Positions 2,090 through 62,566 of a DNA stretch of 64,000 bases are shown here, one piece after another (position 1 is the first letter of the stretch; the number at the start of each line of letters is the position of its first letter). The notes under the pieces are model-generated. The model was given only the letters and a program-made list of their open reading frames with translations. It made no database searches and was not told where the DNA came from. The translations under genes were made by a program, and so were the position numbers. The stretch is from NCBI GenBank assembly GCA_014905635.1, contig JABVCE010000009.1, positions 992,001 through 1,056,000 on the forward strand, in the 5' to 3' direction. Source of the DNA: Scenedesmus sp. PABB004. Taxonomy: Eukaryota.

Positions 2090-4996
2090 TCAATCGTCCG
2101 CGAGGACGAACTCCTCCTCCACCATCTCCTCGCACAGCTCCTCGCACGCGCCCTCCAGCTCGGCCGCGGCGGCCGCGAGCAGCTCGTCGAGCAGCAGGTC
2201 CGCCACCGCCTCGACGACAAACGTCGGCTGCAGCGCCCGCCGCGCGCGCGCCGCCGCCGCCGCCGGCGCGGCGCCGCCGCCGTCGCCGCCGCCGGGCTCG
2301 GGCGAGGCGCCCGCGCTGCCGCCGCCGCCGGCGCCGTCCAGCAGCTCGAGCGCGCCGTCGACGCGCGCCTGGTGGCGCAGGAAGCGGCGCCGCCCGGCCT
2401 TTATCGACTTGAGCGCGGCGCGGCTCAGCCACTCGCCCTCCGCCGGCGCCGGCGCCGGCGCCGCGCGGGCCGGGCTGGGCGGCGCGAGAAGCGCCGCCAC
2501 GCTGCTCGCCGCGCGGGCCACCGCCGGCTCCCACGGCCGCGGGCTCGCCGGCGGCGCAGCCCCCGCCCCGGGCGCCGCCCCGGGCGCCGGCGAGCCGGCG
2601 CCGTCGGCGTCGCCGCCGCCGCCGCCGCCGTCGCCGCGCTCGCCGCCGCCGCCGACGCTGCGCTCGCCGTCGCCGCCAAACCAGCGGCTGTGGATCTCCC
2701 GCTCGGCGGCCTCCATGCGGTCCAGGGCGCTCAGCAGCTGCGCCGCCTCCGCCGGGGGCGCTGCGCCGGGCGCGCGCGCGGCGCCCGCGCCCGCGGCCGG
2801 CGGCGGGCCGCCCTCGAGCTGCTGCTCCAGCCGCCCAAGCACCCCCAGGATGTGGGACGCCGTCTCCTCGAGCCGGCTGAACCTGCGGCGGCGGCGGTGT
2901 CGGGGGCGGCGGCGTGGGCGCAGCCAGGCGGCGAGTGGCGTAGCATCCACGCAGCGTCCGCCGTCGGCCACACCCCCATCGGCCCACCTGGCCTCGTCCT
3001 CGAGCGGCCGCTGCGCGTCAGCCCAGCCGGCCGGGCCGCGGGGCGCTGCGCCGCTCGCCCGGCCCGCGGCCCAGGGCTGCTGCTGCGCGCGGCGCGGCTG
3101 CGACCTCGCCCGCGGTCCGCCGCCGCCGCTCGCCCTGCCCTGGGCGCGGCCGGGCGCGGGCCTCACGCCGCCGGGCCTCGGCCGGCCCGGCCTGCTGACC
3201 CCTGCGCCCGCCGTGCCCGGCCGCGGTGCGCCTGCGGAGGGTGGCGGAGGGGGGTGTGAGGAGGTCAGCCTGTGGCCGGGGGCGCCGCCGGCGCCGCGCC
3301 CCTCGCGGCCAGCCGGGCGCCGCCCTCGCGCCCGGCGCCACCTGCAGCGCGGCGCGGCGCTGCAGCGGCCGCGATGTCCCAGGCCTCGGCCAGGCCGCTC
3401 CGCTTGCGCCGCATCAGGTGGGCCGGCGGCGGCACAAACGGCTCTGACTGCCACTCCGGCCGCGGCCGCTGCGGCACCGGCTCTCGCGCCTGCTGCTGCG
3501 GTTGCGGGCCAGCAGGCTTGGTCGGCGCCGCCGCCGCCACGGCCGCCACCTCCTGCTGCAGGCGCTGCCGCTGCCGCTGCTGCGTGCGCTCCAGCAGCAC
3601 CTGCCGCGCGCTGCCGCCGCGCGGCTGCGGGCTGGTCTGCTCCCAGCCGGGGGCGTCCAGCGTCGGCGGCGGCGCGTTCTCGTCCTGGCTGCCGCGACGC
3701 GCCGCGCCCGGTCGCGGCGGCGCACCGCCGCTGCTGCTCCCCGCGCCCACCAGCGCCGCCTGCAGGTCCGCCAGCGCCGCCTCCTGCTGCTGCGGCTGCC
3801 CGCCCAGCAGCGCCTGGAGCAGGCCCGCCGCGGCCGCCTGCTGCGGCGCGCCGCCGCCAGCGCCGCCGCCAGCGAGCAGATGCCGCAGCGCCGCCTTGAT
3901 CCGGGCACGCCTGTCGGCGGCCTGCTCCTGCGGGGGCGCCCGCGGCTGCGCCGGCTGCTGCTTCTTTCGCGGCGTGCCGGCGCCGGCGATGCGAATGAAC
4001 TCGGGCGGCGCCGGCCCTGGGCGGACAGCGACGGCGGCGGCGGCGGCGGCACAGCGTGAGCGCCGGCGGCGCCGCGGCCGACCCAGCGGCGCCCGCCCGC
4101 CCCCCGTCTCGCCCAAGCCCCACCTGGCGCCTGGCTGCCGCCGCCCGCGCCCGCAGCCGCGGGCGTCAGCGCCGCGCGGACCAGCCAGGAGCTCTGCACA
4201 GCATCGGGCAGCTGCTGCAGCGGCGCCGCGTCGGGGCGCGGAGGCGCGGCGCCCGCGCCGCTCAGCAGGCCCTGCGCGGGGCGCGGCGCGTGAGCGGGCC
4301 GGCGTCGACGCGCGGCCCCGCGCGCGCTCGGCTGGCGGGCGCGCGCACCTCGTGCCGCTGCAGCTGCGCGTTGGCCTGCTGCACCGCCTCCTGCAGCAGC
4401 TCGTTCTGCGCCACCACCCGCTGCGTCAGCGCCATGACCTGCTGCAGCTGCGCCTGCTCCGCCGGCGGCGCGCCGAGCGCGGGCGGCGGGGGCGGCGGGG
4501 GCCGCAGCCCCAGCGCCAGCTGCGCACGCGCGTCGGCCGTCGACGCCGCGAGGCGGCGCGGCCGCTCCGACGCGGCCTGACGCGCCGGCACCGCTTGCCC
4601 CGAGTCGCGCAGCGCGCCCTGCAGCCGCGCCGCCGCCACCCACTGCGGCTGCCGCGGCTGCGGCTGCCGCGGCGGCGGTGGCGGCGACGCGGGCCCGCGC
4701 GCGGGCGCCTCGGCAGGCGGCGGGGTCTGCCCTTGCGCGCCCGTCTGCGTGCTGGCGGCGGCCCGAAGACGACGGATGATCCACTGGTCGTAGTCAACGT
4801 CGGCTGCGGGACGCGGCGGCGCCGGAGCGGCGGTTGGCGCCGCCGCTGCTCGCCGCGCGGCCGCGCGGGCGCATCCGCTGCCCGCACCGGCGCTGGACTT
4901 CAGGAGCTCGTACTCCCTGCTCAGCGCGGCGAGCAGGGGCTTGTTGGCGATCAGGGAGGGCAGCGATAGCGCCTCGCTGCCCGGCGCGGTCGCCAT
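2090..4996 (-). CDS. Low-complexity/coiled-coil protein with a Moonraker (KIAA0753/OFIP)-like C-terminus; multi-exon
   Basis: ATG 4996 (MATAPGSEALSLPSLIANKPLL). Last exon reads ..ALDRMEAAEREIHSRW..ALKSIKAGRRRFLRHQ..FVVEAVADLLLDELLAAAAAELEGACEELCEEMVEEEF*, resembling the KIAA0753 C-terminal pattern as I recall it. Internal exon boundaries are less certain. Confidence 0.6.
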
Positions 4997-5296: not shown

Positions 5297-6012
5297 ATGG
5301 ACTGCGCCATCTGTTTGCGCAGCCCCATCGACCTGGCCGACGAGGCCTTCCTGCTGCCCTGCTGGCACCGGTTTTGCTGGTCCTGCGCGGCCGCGTGGAC
5401 CGATACGCAGGCGGCGCACCCTCCTGGCTCCCCGAGCTCTTCACGGGGCGGCGGGGATTGCTTCACGTGCCCGCTGTGCAAGCAGCCGTACACCCAGATC
5501 GTCTACGACTGCGTGGGCGCGTCCTTCCAGGTCCGCGCCGTCGGCGGCGCCGGCAGCGCGGCGGCGCCGGGCGTGGTGCTGACCGCCGCGCAGCGCCGGC
5601 GGCGCGCGCTGTACGCGATCGGCCCCGAGCTTCTACTGCAGCCGCACGACCAGGCGAGCAACCGCGAGGCGGCGCCCGCGGGCCAGGTGGGTTGGGGCGG
5701 CGTTCGAGCGGCGAGCCGACAGCTGGGCGGCGGCGAGCCCCCTCGGCTGCCGCCCGCGCCCCCGATCGCGCCGCCCGCCCGCGCGCAGGCGCGGCCGCCC
5801 CGCGCGCGCGGCCCGTCGCACCACCAGACCGCCGAGTGGGTGGGGCGCGAGCTGCAGGCTGTGCTGCTGGAGAGCGATGTGTCGCTCATCACGCAGCACG
5901 TGCTCGGCCAGCTGCAGGGCCTCGCGGCGCGCCAGGCGCCCGGCAGGTGGGCGCGGCGGCGCCGAGCGCGGCGGCGGCTGCGCGCGCCGTGCAGCCCGTC
6001 ACCCGCCGCCGC

Positions 6013-6369: not shown

Positions 6370-6531
6370 GGGAGGCGGTCGTGCGCGCCCGCTTGTGACG
6401 GCCGCGCCGGTCTCGTGCCCCCCGCTGACAGCCTCCCCAACCTCACGGCGCAGCGGCGCGGGCGCCCCGCGGACGGTGGTGCGTCGCGGCGCGCAGCGCG
6501 CGTCGCGCCTCGGCGCCGCGCGGCGCGTCGG

Positions 6532-6858
6532 GGGGCGGCAGGGATTGCTTCACGTGCCCGCTGTGCAAGCAGCCGTACACCCAGATCGTCTACGACTGCG
6601 TGGGCGCGTCCTTCCAGGTCCGCGCCGTCGGCGGCGCCGGCAGCGCGGCGGCGCCGGGCGTGGTGCTGACCGCCGCGCAGCGCCGGCGGCGCGCGCTGTA
6701 CGCGATCGGCCCCGAGCTTCTACTGCAGCCGCACGACCAGGCGAGCAACCGCGAGGCGGCGCCCGCGGGCCAGGTGGGTTGGGGCGGCGTTCGAGCAGCG
6801 AGCCGACAGCTGGGCAGCGGCGAGCCCCCTCGGCTGCCGCCCGCGCCCCCGATCGCGC
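6532..6858 (+). repeat. Direct partial duplicate of 5445-5771 (3' half of RING exon 1 plus most of intron 1); gene fragment
   Basis: About 327 bp at offset 1087, identical except G->A at 6540, 6797 and 6816. Lacks the start codon and the first RING cysteines. Confidence 0.95.
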
Positions 6859-55772: not shown

Positions 55773-57850
55773 TCATATGGTCTGATCAGCGCCCGCCCCC
55801 GGCGGCCGCGCCGGCGCGAGCAGCCACGGCGGCGCGCGCGGCGCGCCGCGCCCGAGGCGCGGCTGCGCGCCGCCCGCGGCCGGCACCCGGTCCTCGTCGA
55901 CGCTCGCCGGCACGCCGGCCGCGTAGACGGTGACGCTGTAGGCCAGCGTGTCGCCCGGCAGGCCGAGCGAGGCGTGGAGGCCGGAGATGGTCACCGAGTA
56001 TGTGACCTCCGCCGCCGGCCGCACGAGCATCCAGCTCTCGTTGCCGCGCTGCGTCGCGAGCGCGGGGCGCCACGACAGCGCGTGCAGGTCCCACTCCCCG
56101 CGCGGCTCGAGCGCGAGCGGCACCGCGGCCGGGCCGCCGCCGGCCGCGTCGCGCGCGGTCATGGCCACACTCGCGGTGCCAAACAGGTCTGCCTCCCACC
56201 AGCTGTCCGGCAGGGCCGCCTCGAGGCCGAGCCCCTCAAAGCTCACGTGCCAGCGGGGGAAGACGAGCGGGTACGGCACGTACCCGGGCGGCGGCCAGGC
56301 GGTGAACGCCAGCCCGGCGCGCCCGCCCGGCGCGGGCGGGCCGCCCGCGCTGCCGTCTTCGACGACCCACAGCGCGTGCGCCGGCACCGCGCCCGGCGCG
56401 GGCGACGGCCACGCGTCGCCCGGCGCCATCGCGCGCGTGCCTGCGGGCGCGCAGCGGCGGCGGCCGGGTCTGGGCCGGGCGGCGCAGCTGCCGGCGCGGG
56501 CCGCCGCCGCCGGCGTCCGCCGCGGCCGCTCACTCGGCAGCAGCAGCCAGCGGCGGTGCCCCACGCCGCTGTTGAACTCGCCCTCGTCCGCCATAAAGGC
56601 AATCACCGCCTGCGGCCCCACCGCGCCGAGCGCGAGGTTGCTCGCCGCCGCGGCAGCGCGTGCGGGCGCGGTCGCGCAGGGCCAGCCGTCGCCGGGGTCG
56701 TGCGACAGGTCCTGCGCCGCCGCCATCGCGAGCGCGGCCGCGAGCGCGCCCGCGGCCTCGCCGGCGTCGCCCGACAGCGCGACCGGGCCGGCGCCGGCCA
56801 TGGCGCGAAAGAAGTTGACCTGCGCGCGCGGGGGCGGCGGGCGGGCGCGCCCGTCACGCGCGGCGGAGCGCGTGCCGCCGCCGGCGGGGCTCCTGCACCA
56901 CGCGCGCCCAGCTCGCCAGCCGCCCCCCTCCCCTGGCCGCCCCGCCATGGCCCGCGCACCATCGCCAGCGTCTCGGCCTGCCAGCCCGCCGGCAGCTGGA
57001 ACGGCGTGCAGGCGTCAGCGCTGCCGGGAAAGCCGTTCTCGGCCGCCGTGCAGCACGCGGGGTGGTCCGGGCCGCCCATGTAGCAGTCGAGGTGCGGCAG
57101 GAACGCCGCCGTGAACGCGGACGTGACCTCGGCGCGGCGGCTCGTGTCGATGGGCCCCGGCGGCAGCGGCGCGGCGCCGCGGCACGCGCCGTCGGCGCCG
57201 CGGCACCGCGCCGGCGCGCCGGGCGTGGGTGCGGCGCAGACGTCGAGCGCGCGGGGCAGGCCGTGCAGGTCAGCGTGCCGCCGCAGCCGTCGGGCAGGCC
57301 CGCGCCGCAGACGCCGTCGCCCGCCAGCAGCTCGCAGCTCGCCGGCGTGCACACGCACACGCCCGCATCGCACGTGCCGGGCTGTCCCTCGTCGTCGATG
57401 CAGGCCTCCGGCTCCGGGAAGCTGCGGCGCGCCGGCAGGGGGCTGTACCTGCACGTGCCGGTCACGCCGTCGCACGCCGCCTCCTGGCAGACCGGCGGCG
57501 CGCACGTGCAGGGCCGGCAGGGGCCCGCAGCGGCCGCTGGGCTGAAGCTCCCCGCGGTGCAGGGGCGGCAGCGCCCGCCGCGCCGCCCAAAGCCCGCCAC
57601 GCACAGCGCGCAGCGCCGCTGCCCCGCGCCGTTGGTCGTCGCGCCGGCGGGGCAGCGCCGGCAGGCTGCCGGCCGGCCCGCGCTGTCGGTGAAGGTCCCG
57701 GGCGGGCACGGCACGCACGCGCCGGCCTGCACGAACTCGCCCGGCCTGCACGACGGCACGCCCACTAGTGGTGCTGCCGGCGGCGCGCCTGGTGCGTCCT
57801 CTTGCGGCGCTGGCTCTTCCGATGCTGCTGCTGCTGCTGCTGCTGCTGAG

Positions 57851-58458: not shown

Positions 58459-61400
58459 TCACAGGCCCACCCAGTAGCTGCGGCCGCCGGGGTTGTGGAT
58501 GGCGCTCGTCGCCGGCGCGCTGACGGCCCACTCGTACCAGACCTTGTGCTTGCCGGCCTTGCGCCACATGTGCGCGACGACCGGCGCGCCCGGCGGCAGC
58601 GGCAGCGGCTCCCGCAGCGGGAAAAAGATGGGGAACCAGCTGAACATGTTGGGCGTGTGCGTGGGCGGGTGCGTGTTCAGCGTCACGCCTGCGGCGGCGG
58701 GGCGGGTGGCCGTGCACGTCGGCGTCGGCGGCGGCCGCGGCGGCTGAGCACACAGCACGCAGCGCGCGAGCGCGCGGCCGCCGCCGCGAGCCGCCCGGGG
58801 CGCGCACGCACGCGCCGCGCCCCACACACACGCGCGCGCAGGCGCACCCGGGTACAGCACGCTCTCAAAGTAGCCAGCGAAGCCGTGCAGCACGCCCGGC
58901 CCGTCCGCAGCGGGCCGCGGGAACGTGAGCGTCGCGCCGCGGTCGTTGTCGGCGGGCTGCGGCGTAGGGTGGGTGAACGTGAAGACCGGCTGCGGCGGCG
59001 ACAGCTCAAAGTACCTGCGCAGCAGGGCGCGGCGCAGAGCAGTCGTCGGGCGGCGTCGGGCGGGGAGGCGGGCCCGGGCGCCCGCGGCGGCCCGCGGCGG
59101 CCCGCGGCGGCCCGCGGCGGCCCGCGGCCGCGCCGCGCCGCGCCCTGCCCGCCGCACCGCCGCCGCCTGCTCCGCGGCGCGCCCCCGCCCCGGCCGCGGC
59201 CCCGCCTGCGCCGGCGGCGCCGCGCCTGTGGAACTTGACGACGTAGGGCGTCTCCCAGTGCTCCAGGTCCTTGTACGCGCGCACGCCCTCGTGCAGCTTG
59301 GTCGTGCTCACTGGCGCGAGGAAGCTCGTGTAGCTGCGGCGCGCGCGCGCGCGTGTGAAAGGAGGCGGGCGGAGCGGCGGAGGCGGCGAGGGTGGCGGCT
59401 CAAGAGGGGCGGCGGCGTGGCGCGAGTGAGGGGCGGCGAGGCGGGGAGGCGGGCGGCGGCGGCGCGGCCGCCGGGGCCGCGCCTGCAGGGGATGCTGATG
59501 CCGTCAGGCTTCAGCAGGCGCTGCGCGCCGTCGAGGCACTCGGGCGAGAGCTCGTTGTCGCCAAACGACCCCAGCAGCTCGCTGACCAGGATGTCGGCCT
59601 GCGCGTGCGGCGCGGTGCGCGGCGGGCCGCCGGCTCGGGCGCCGGCCGCGACGCTGCGCGCTGCGGTGCCGAGCGCGCGCAGCGGCGGCGGCGGCGGCGG
59701 TCGCGGCGGCGGCCGCGCGCCTTCTCCGGCGGCTCCCAGTCGCGCATGTCCTGCGCCACGATCGTCACGTCGTCGGCCCAGCCCTCGGCGTCGACCATCG
59801 CCTGCGCGCGCGGGGGGCCGTGGGTGGACGGGCCGTCAGCGCCGCGCCGGCAAGAGGAAGCCCCCCCCGCCCCACGCGGCGGCGCTGCGGCGCCGCGGCG
59901 CCGCGGCCGTGCCTGGATGTGCACGATGGCCGCAGGGTTCTTCTCCACCGCGTACACGCGCAGCCGCCGCCCCGCCTCGCGCGCCGCCGCGAGCGACGCG
60001 CGCACGAGCGGGCCGCGCCCTGCGCGCGCGGGCGCGTGGGCGCGCGGGCGCACGCCAGGCGGCTCGCCGCGCCCCCGGCCGCCCGCGCCGCGCCGCGCCG
60101 CGCCGCGCCGCGCCGCGCCGCGCCGCGCCGCGCCGCGCCGCGCCGCGCCGCGCGGCGCGGCGCCCGACGCTCACCTGCGCCGACGACCATCAGCGTCGTC
60201 ACGGCCGCCGCCGCGTCGGCGTCGGGCACGCGGTCGGCCAGCGCCGCGCGCACCGCGGCCTGGTAGCAGGCGTACTTGGTCACGTCCTTCTCAAACGTCT
60301 CGTACGTCTGGCTCTCAAGGTTGTCCTGCAGCGGCTGCAGCGGCGCCTGCGCGCGCGCGCCACGCGCGTCGGCGGTGCGGCGCGCGCGTCGGCGCAGTGC
60401 AGCAGCGCAGTGCAGCGACGCAGGCGGCGCGTGCGACAGCAGTGGCGGCGGCGGCGGCGGCGGCGGCGGGTGGTGGTGGTGGCGGCGCGCCTGCAGGTAG
60501 TCCCGGTACCCGGCCTCCAGGAAGTCCTGCGGCACGCCGCTGTCGATGCGCCTGCGCGCGCGCGCGCGTCGGCACGGCGGGTGCGTTGGCGCGCGTCGGG
60601 CGCGGCCCCGCGCGGCGCGCGTCGTCGCGGTGGCCGGGCCGGGCCCCGCGCGCTGCAGGCGGGCCGCAGCGTCTGCGCGCCGCGCCGCGCGGCGCGCGCC
60701 TGAAGATGTAGCAGAGGTACTCCCAGTAGGGCCGCAGCGCGTGGCTCTCCCCCGGGTCGGTCACGCTGAACGGCAGCGGCGCGTCGCCGGCGGCGGCGCC
60801 GCCGGCCTCGCCGTCGCCCGCGGGCGTCGCCGGCGGCGGCGGCGCCGGCGCGGGCGCGACCTTGTGCCGGGCGCCGCCGGTGAGGATGACCTGTGTGTGC
60901 ATGGCGCCGCGCGGCGGGCAGCCGCCCCGCTGCTGAGCGCGCGCGGCGCGCAGCGCGCGGGCGTCGGTCCTGCCGCGCCGCGCCGCGCGGGCGCGCCTGC
61001 ACGCTGTGGCTGTACGCGAGGCTGACGAGCTCCTGGTGGGCGCGGGAGAGCACCGGGTAGCCGCGCTTGTTGGTCGTGAACACGCCTGGAGGCCGCGCGG
61101 CGAGGGGCAGCGCGGCGTGTGGGCGCGGTGCGGGCGCGGTGCGGGGCGCGGGCGCCAGAGCGGCGCCGGCGCGCGCACTCGTGGGCAGAATCAGCGCCTT
61201 GAGCGGCTGCGCGAGCCACCGCTTGACCGCCGCCTGCGGCGGCAGGTCGGCCGGCACCTCCAGCGCGACGCCGAGCAGCGTGCTGTGCTCGCACAGCGCG
61301 TGGACCATGAGCCAGAACTCAAACCAGTCGCCGCCGCCCTGCGCCGCCTCTGGCAGCGCCATGGGCATCTGCAGCCACACGGCCATGTGCGTGAGGCCGC

Positions 61401-62087
61401 CGAGCGCCTGGTTGATGGTCTGCACCCAGTTGAACGCGGCGCGCGCGTCGGCCGGCGCGGGCAGCAGCACGGCCTGCAGCCCGAGGAATGCCGCCCAGCT
61501 CAGCTCCTGCTGCAGCGCGGCGCCCGCCTTCTTGGCCGCGGCCACGTCGCCGGCGTCCGGGTTGATCCAGGGGCTGACCTTGCCCACGATCTGCCAGCGG
61601 CGGCGGCGCGATGGGGCGGCGGAGCAGGGCGCGGCCTCGGCCGCCGGCCCGCGCCGCGCGCCGCGCGCCGCGCGCCGGCCGCTGGTGGTGCCAGCTGCCG
61701 CTGCGCGCGCGGGGCGCGGGGCGCGAGCGCGCCGCCGCGCCTGGCCGCCCCAGGAGGCGCTGGTCAGCATGATCTCCTTGCGCAGCCGCGCCGGCACGGG
61801 CCCGCCGCCCGGCAGCGCCAGCGGCGGCTCCGCGTGGCCCGGCGCGACGAGCGGCGCGACGACAAAGTCAAAGCCGCACAGCAGGTACTCCTGCGCCGCC
61901 GCGCGCGCGCACGCGCCGCGGCGCGAGCGCGGGCGGCCGTCGGCGCGCCGCGCGCGCCAGCGGCGGCGGCGGCCGCGCGCGCGGGCGGCGGGCGCGCCTG
62001 CATCGCGCCCGAGATGTCATGGGCGAAGTCCACCTCCACGCCGCTGTAGCGGGCGTCCCCAAAGTCGGTGCGCTTGCCCAGCGGCAT
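58459..62087 (-). CDS. PRMT5: Protein arginine N-methyltransferase 5 (13 exons)
   Basis: MPLG.., [150 protein letters not shown]. Confidence 0.98.
60086..60150 (+). repeat. (CGCCG)13 pentanucleotide microsatellite in PRMT5 intron 7
   Basis: Read directly; shorter runs of the same unit occur in many other introns. Confidence 0.85.
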
Positions 62088-62566
62088 GGCGGCCTGCTGC
62101 CGCGGCACGCGGCCGGTGCGCAGCGCCTGCGCGAGCGCGCGGCGGCCGGCGTCGGCTGCGGCGGCCGTGCCGCGGCGCAGCCGGGCAGGCACGGCCGCGG
62201 CGGCGCCTGCGCTGGGAGCGGCGGCCGGCGCTGTCACTGATAGCGAGGCGGCCGACCACCGCCGCAGCAGCTCACCCCCGAAGTGCCGGCGGTGGCGCCG
62301 TCTGCTGCTGCGCTGCGCTGATGCCGCGGCGAGCCCGGCAGCGCGTGGGCGCGAAGACCGAGGGATTGAGAGCTCGGGCCGTCGACGGGCGGCCAGGGCG
62401 TGAGGGTGGCGCAGGGCTTTGCGGCGGCGGCGTCGCTGATGTGCCCCGGCTCCGCCGCCGCCGCCGGCCACACCCCTCCACGCCTGCCGCGACGTCACGC
62501 TCACGCCGTGAGCTGTCAGAGCCGCCAGCTCCTCGGCAGCACCAGCAGCAGGGGCGGCGGGCGAAA

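Follow-up and report, generated by a model that had tools for sequence, protein, structure and literature searches.

The gene for PRMT5 lies on the minus strand of a stretch of 64,000 nucleotides (nt) of the Scenedesmus sp. PABB004 genome (contig JABVCE010000009.1, positions 992,001 to 1,056,000; hereafter the window). Nine of its twelve coding introns begin with GC, the remaining three with GT. This count is real, and it is probably ordinary for its genome: the nine GC donors appear to be the chance tail of a genome-wide drift toward GC donors, a reading that we think probable and that needs no regulatory role. An excess of GC-AG introns in high-GC algae has already been published.

The 13 coding exons of PRMT5 join into a 1974-nt open reading frame (ORF) of 657 amino acids that has no internal stop and encodes the TIM barrel, methyltransferase and oligomerisation domains. 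The translation is identical to residues 1-657 of protein P0001, which carries the NCBI label PRMT5 [Scenedesmus sp. PABB004]. A preliminary description of this DNA had counted nine GC donors among twelve; all twelve donor coordinates were exact, and the junctions that it had read across introns 6, 9 and 10 were confirmed by homologue alignment (Table 1). Compared with algal homologues, nine junctions are gapless in 3 of 3 and the other three in 2 of 3. All nine GC donors follow an exonic AG and have a G at +5; ten of the twelve donors are AG-ended, and nine of these ten are GC. For five GC donors there is no in-frame GT within 30 nt, and for the other four an alternative GT lies upstream, use of which would remove 2-10 aligned residues. 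The introns are 93-211 nt long with a GC content of 84-95%. With GC at +1/+2, AG at the 3' end and a frame that is restored on removal, the GC introns are predicted, from reading frame and homology, to splice as ordinary U2-type introns. If a possible intron in the 5' untranslated region (UTR) is real, the count becomes nine GC in 13.

The NCBI model P0001 extends past PRMT5 into a separate downstream CAP-domain gene (window 55776-57447, minus strand). This fusion is probably an annotation error, because YWVGL forms the C-terminus of PRMT5 homologues and is followed by a stop in the window. The divergent neighbour of PRMT5 begins at about 62567.

The background against which PRMT5 has to be judged was obtained with a gene finder written for this study, which permits both GT and GC donors, was seeded with PRMT5 and kinesin, and was self-trained on the window plus 500 kb of the same genome (G000). 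The untargeted set began with 1113 predicted introns, of which 989 passed a posterior of 0.95 (124 were dropped); 184 of the 989 were GC, and under a 2% GC prior the figure was 170 of 974. The final set, in which targeted loci and their flanks were added and introns shorter than 60 nt removed, spans ~0.94 Mb, or 2.3% of the genome, and comprises 1546 introns, predicted ab initio, in 329 genes including PRMT5. Outside PRMT5, 284 of 1534 predicted introns (18.5%) have GC donors. The exonic AG divides them sharply: 255 of 762 donors that follow AG are GC (33.5%, PRMT5 excluded), compared with 29 of 774 (3.7% or less, whole set) of those that do not.

Within the AG class, predicted GC donors almost always continue with GCG or ACG. 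For example, when the exon boundary is written as a slash and the +2 base as an underscore, the untargeted set has GC at 7 of 7 AG/G_ACG donors and at 0 of 46 AG/G_GGG donors. First introns are GC in 13 of 61 cases, below the 34% of inner introns, and genes poor in Ala, Gly and Pro have 106 GC among 268 AG-ended donors, compared with 149 of 492 in other genes. In conserved-type, intron-rich genes ~40% of donors after AG are GC. Plain motif counts held no information on donors: GCGCG occurs everywhere in the genome.

When the gene finder was checked on exportin-1 and DHX16, 28 of 35 junctions aligned without gaps to three or more of four homologues. Of the remaining seven, three combined the right donor with an acceptor set too far downstream, two fell in regions that could not be aligned, and two were false calls of GC donors. 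Checked by homology, AG/GC donors were right in 11 of 12 cases in these two genes and in 8 of 8 in a third, coatomer beta. In FPS the acceptor of intron 7 was misplaced. The rate of GC donors is approximate, yet it is no artefact. One of the checked genes shows a frame slip: in DHX16 (locus L143, about 4240-4330, minus strand) a one-base slip puts a conserved helicase motif out of frame. An assembly error is the probable cause, and the slip gave a false 50-nt GC intron in the gene-finder model. The intron before the exon at about 3975 of the same locus (minus strand) carries two CCCTAAA telomere-type units just upstream of its acceptor.

The components that recognize these donors look unchanged. 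Two U1 genes were found and both begin with ATACTTACCTG, the canonical 5' end; the ACAGAGA box of U6 and loop 1 of U5 are canonical as well. No variant U1 matching GC was present among 41 scored candidates, which yielded two identical canonical copies, although divergent copies could be missed in such a scan. There is no compensating change of small nuclear RNA (snRNA) in the copies found. A truncated U6 copy lies 3 kb beyond the full U6 gene on C77 (L004).

Donor energies were calculated in a fixed register with this U1 and describe U1 pairing alone, not later roles of the +2 U. On this scale CAG/GCGCG pairs at -4.5 kcal/mol, the median GT donor without exonic AG at -4.7 and AG/GT donors at -6.8. 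A total of 322 of 1187 GT donors pair with U1 no better than -4.5 kcal/mol. Among the 94 genes that have at least six introns, 14 show weaker mean pairing than PRMT5. By the standards of this genome, the PRMT5 donors do not stand out as weak.

PRMT5 was picked after the fact, and its probabilities have to be read with that in mind. The chance of at least nine GC among ten AG-ended donors is 3.7e-4 under a binomial, the lowest value among 266 genes with AG-ended donors; it is 1.9e-3 with gene covariates and 3.8e-3 with donor context. With PRMT5 removed, the per-gene counts of the untargeted set fit a binomial (X2 145.9, 145 degrees of freedom, permutation P=0.47), and the full set gives X2 283.9 with 264 degrees of freedom (P=0.11). 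The maximum-likelihood estimate of gene-level spread, rho, is 0.05 with an interval of 0-0.12. In a 40-Mb genome, the expected number of genes as extreme as PRMT5 is 0.14 at rho 0, 0.40 at 0.02, 0.86 at 0.04, 1.5 at 0.06 and 3.7 at 0.10. PRMT5 probably ranks with the handful of most extreme genes in its genome, but roughly one such gene is expected.

The preliminary description had raised the possibility that GC donors cluster by gene beyond a binomial conditioned on exonic AG, and had named random per-gene counts as its refutation. PRMT5 itself is extreme on this measure, but the other genes are near binomial, which comes close to that refutation. GC use had seemed gene-specific there by comparison with kinesin (1 GC in 13 introns, 8 of them AG-ended) and FPS (1 in 8, 7 AG-ended). 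Both counts are correct, but neither gene lies below chance at a rate of 33.5% (kinesin P=0.19).

A non-splicing gene can resemble PRMT5. In coatomer beta 8 of 16 introns are GC, five of them consecutive; 8 of 10 AG-ended donors are GC (7 of 9 at posterior >0.95), 5 of 5 homologues align without a gap across all 8 GC junctions, and the corresponding probability is P=0.0035. Spliceosomal and related genes were located by family search and modelled with the trained gene finder. Sm/Lsm, LUC7, Prp8, Snu114, pICln and four DEAH helicases together have 30 GC among 76 AG-ended donors, compared with a background of 190 of 586 (one-sided P=0.14); their 39.5% is the rate of conserved-type genes generally. 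RRM genes have 20 of 57 (P=0.39). Both the DEAH and the RRM sets include genes other than splicing factors.

The GT-to-GC substitutions in PRMT5 most likely arose one by one, driven by a genome-wide pull to G and C. The GC content is ~79% in the window (75-84% along its length) and 78-80% in six genome blocks; that of most Sphaeropleales is ~56% (PMC12571836). Such a pull would be consistent with intron interiors, whose ratio of C to T is 6.8 overall and 10-13 in G_G contexts. In the predicted gene models the resulting GC donors would be tolerated after AG, with GCG or ACG following, and seldom elsewhere. Since the U1 5' end is canonical, the exonic AG and the +5 G would compensate for the mismatch at +2, in line with known GC donors, in which closer matching at other positions makes up for the C (PMC3167603). 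Human genes provide examples of GT-to-GC changes after which splicing persists (PMC8375439). The +2 base may be held at a balance of mutation or conversion, selection and drift. Selection for T would be weak after AG (log odds -2.4 to -3.0 relative to the neutral ratio) and strong elsewhere (-5.2 to -5.8), estimates which assume that the C:T ratio of intron interiors is the neutral equilibrium. Conserved-type, intron-rich genes have the higher rate given above, PRMT5 offers ten AG-ended donors, and about one gene with so extreme a count is expected in the genome. In other organisms an excess of GC-AG introns has likewise been tied to high genomic GC (PMC3033335, PMC4028052, 10.1101/2024.10.30.620910).

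Several observations weigh against chance drift as the whole explanation. PRMT5 is the single most extreme of the 266 genes, and a pure binomial expects just 0.14 such genes genome-wide. It is also a known splicing regulator, a rare identity for a random gene of the tail. In the strict AG/G_GCG context, gene-level spread without PRMT5 reaches a permutation P of 0.047. The estimate of spread is itself inflated by coatomer beta, which was completed after its first part had given 4 of 4 GC. A branch-like motif, CT[GCA]A[CT], occurs in 1 of 12 PRMT5 introns and in 310 of 977 elsewhere, a mild hint of weaker signals in PRMT5. The background rests on ab initio models, not on RNA. The best point for something family-specific comes from two other PRMT genes, PRMT1 and a putative PRMT3-like gene, so called after its predicted protein, in which 5 of 6 AG-ended donors are GC (one-sided P=0.016, uncorrected, one of four groups). 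In PRMT1, 4 of 7 introns are GC, one of them after CG rather than AG.

Some of these points would also suit relaxed selection specific to the gene, an unlikely explanation in our judgement. If splicing efficiency mattered little for PRMT5, for example through low expression or excess enzyme, its AG-ended donors could drift to the neutral GC share without any function. The observed nine in ten equals the neutral share of 0.87-0.93 derived from intron interiors, and the maximum-likelihood spread above zero and the few branch-like motifs point the same way. However, the acceptors of PRMT5 score at the 46th percentile of 71 genes, which is average, codon bias as a proxy for expression shows no link to GC donors (P=0.94), and the spread is not significant once PRMT5 is left out. 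The preliminary description had proposed instead that the weak donors act as a feedback sensor of spliceosome capacity. Here, selection would keep GC donors so that PRMT5 mRNA tracks the supply of small nuclear ribonucleoproteins (snRNPs), itself aided by Sm methylation by PRMT5. Taken at face value this would be positive feedback, in which less PRMT5 leads to less PRMT5 mRNA; such a loop would amplify or switch and would not act as a homeostat. PRMT5 has a published role at weak 5' splice sites: in Arabidopsis it buffers weak donors (10.1101/2024.11.26.624665). The extreme tail (P from 4e-4 to 4e-3) and the two other PRMT genes are in favour of the sensor, and retention of a GC intron shifts the frame in 6 of 9 cases. 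On the other side, retention of introns 2, 6 and 8 would bring neither a frame shift nor a stop, the donors do not stand out as weak in this genome, coatomer beta comes close to the PRMT5 count, and core splicing genes show no enrichment (pICln 0 GC in 3 introns, LUC7 1 in 8). The sensor gained no direct support, and we consider it quite improbable. We are similarly doubtful of the stronger proposal that PRMT5, perhaps with its family, is held near complete GC by selection and that nine small penalties multiply into a methylosome-snRNP switch.

The history and surroundings of the gene bear on the remaining alternatives. In a metagenome scan for PRMT5 orthologues 80 of 207 confirmed loci were kept, 75 of which align in one piece (transcripts or intron-poor genes); introns were read in three loci, L033, L061 and L080, and no close relative with introns was found among the 80. 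Three intron positions are shared with L061 or L080, and 3 of 3 donors there are GT (Table 1). These shared positions are old and GC at them is probably derived, which also speaks against a feedback device, although both loci belong to algae too distant to test recent conservation. L033 (5343-5440), from a distant GC-rich alga, has a CAG/GC donor in PRMT5 at a position absent from the gene in the window. Introner-type elements that carry a GC donor are known from Aureococcus and Micromonas, and a recent burst of such insertions might have left short junction repeats like those at PRMT5 GC introns (mean 4.9 nt). Yet the repeats at GT introns after AG are of like length (4.1 nt), and PRMT5 introns have 0 matches among 977 other introns, with one weak 71% match inside the gene itself. 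With no look-alikes and with old shared positions, an introner origin is largely refuted and seems extremely unlikely.

Local GC-biased substitution, the other alternative of the preliminary description, would place a hot spot of gene conversion or mutation over the locus. Intron GC of PRMT5 (89.7%) and its GC content at third codon positions (GC3) lie at the 87th and 81st percentiles of 109 genes, and PRMT1 and its neighbour coatomer beta are both rich in GC donors. The neighbours of PRMT5 are ordinary, however, with 15 GC of 51 inside the window and 4 of 23 over the 30 kb beyond it; on the other side of PRMT1, 1 of 8 confident AG donors within 10 kb is GC, and intron GC of genes shows no correlation with their share of GC donors (Spearman 0.01, P=0.89). 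The hot spot was rejected on its ordinary neighbours and the missing correlation; we hold it very unlikely, and a genome-wide bias fits better than a local one. That the true donors are GT, or the introns unspliced, is scarcely credible. PRMT5 splicing is predicted from sequence and the genome has probable single-base assembly errors, such as that behind the false DHX16 intron, but the ORF is intact, gapless against homologues and identical to the NCBI model, no usable GT lies at the junctions, and nine T-to-C errors that all follow AG are implausible.

Table 1. Coordinates of PRMT5, its introns and related features. Positions are those of the window unless a genome locus (G000) is given; on the minus strand the higher number of an intron is its donor end and the lower its acceptor end. 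Slashes mark splice junctions.
Feature	Position	Strand	Description	Basis
PRMT5 coding gene	58459..62087	-	13 coding exons, 657 amino acids	ORF, domains, homologue alignment
Intron 1	61891..61997	-	GC-AG, CAG/GCGCGC, phase 0, 107 nt; GT at same position in locus L061	
Intron 2	61591..61740	-	GC-AG, CAG/GCGCGG, phase 0, 150 nt	
Intron 3	61086..61178	-	GT-AG, CGA/GTGCGC, phase 1, 93 nt; predicted to pair least strongly with U1 among the PRMT5 donors	
Intron 4	60891..60996	-	GC-AG, CAG/GCGCGC, phase 0, 106 nt; GT at same position in locus L080	
Intron 5	60552..60699	-	GC-AG, CAG/GCGCGC, phase 2, 148 nt	
Intron 6	60347..60490	-	GC-AG, CAG/GCGCGC, phase 0, 144 nt (DYLQ/APLQ)	
Intron 7	60020..60174	-	GT-AG, CAG/GTGAGC, phase 1, 155 nt; sole AG-ended GT donor of PRMT5	
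Intron 8	59802..59912	-	GC-AG, CAG/GCACGG, phase 0, 111 nt	
Intron 9	59599..59720	-	GC-AG, AAG/GCGCGC, phase 0, 122 nt (EK/ADILV)	
Intron 10	59334..59482	-	GC-AG, CAG/GCGCGG, phase 2, 149 nt (SIPC S/YTSF)	
Intron 11	59015..59225	-	GC-AG, CAG/GCGCGG, phase 2, 211 nt; GT at same position in locus L080	
Intron 12	58689..58847	-	GT-AG, CGG/GTGCGC, phase 1, 159 nt	
Possible 5' UTR intron of PRMT5	62127..62275	-	GT-AG, G/GTGAGC ... CGCAG, 149 nt	read from sequence
U1 snRNA genes (two, identical)	G000:C46:321585-321743 and 327202-327360 (L001, L002)		opposite orientation, 5.5 kb apart	
Coatomer beta gene	G000:C1 about 4,754,937-4,760,458 (L137:4937 to L189:3458)	+	directly after PRMT1	

GC-AG introns make up 39.6% of introns in Aureococcus anophagefferens, 22.2% in Micromonas pusilla and 7.7% in Chlorella sp. 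(PMC3033335), 56-65% in Emiliania huxleyi (PMC4028052) and 14-17% in pelagophytes (10.1101/2024.10.30.620910), compared with a plant average of 1.2% (10.1101/428318). This Scenedesmus resembles these GC-AG-rich algae in its very high GC, a share far above 1.2% and canonical AG acceptors. It differs in being a chlorophycean (Sphaeropleales), and here the share, which is prediction-based, was split by context and tested gene by gene. A GC-AG figure for this alga or its lineage was not found in the accessible literature, supplements and most subscription papers aside. As in the U2-type GC-AG introns of animals and plants (PMC3167603, PMC7242645), the C at +2 is offset elsewhere, here by exonic AG and +5 G. 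In contrast to those introns, the class is ~20 times more frequent, and the intronic part reads GCGC or GCGG instead of a strong AAGT-type consensus. The fewer GC donors of first introns in this alga are the opposite of the first-intron bias in human genes.

In known cases of autoregulatory splicing, regulation falls on a single intron or poison exon, which is usually conserved. PRMT5, by contrast, has nine apparently constitutive donors, and regulation through them is a candidate only. The likeness to the splicing feedback of splicing factors and MAT2A (PMC12179342) is that the pre-mRNA of a regulator could report on the process that the regulator supports. PRMT5 and GC-AG are absent from the text of that review, and self-regulation of PRMT5 through its own donors was not found described in the accessible literature, supplements and most subscription papers again aside.

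Elsewhere in the window, a ~320-base stretch of a RING-finger gene (about 5450-5770) is repeated almost exactly downstream at 6530-6850 (plus strand), a duplication or an assembly artefact.

Regulation of the PRMT5 cluster, if it existed, would represent a new type of splicing self-control, and under selection on all nine donors PRMT5 would regulate itself in a distributed way, through many introns; the evidence at hand calls for neither. The solid result is the background: about one in five introns is predicted to have a GC donor, gated almost wholly by exonic AG, while the recognition sequences of the snRNAs are unchanged. For annotation this means that GT-only predictors will err in this genome. 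For the study of splice sites, the alga offers a clean setting for weighing selection at +2 against mutation or conversion biased to GC.

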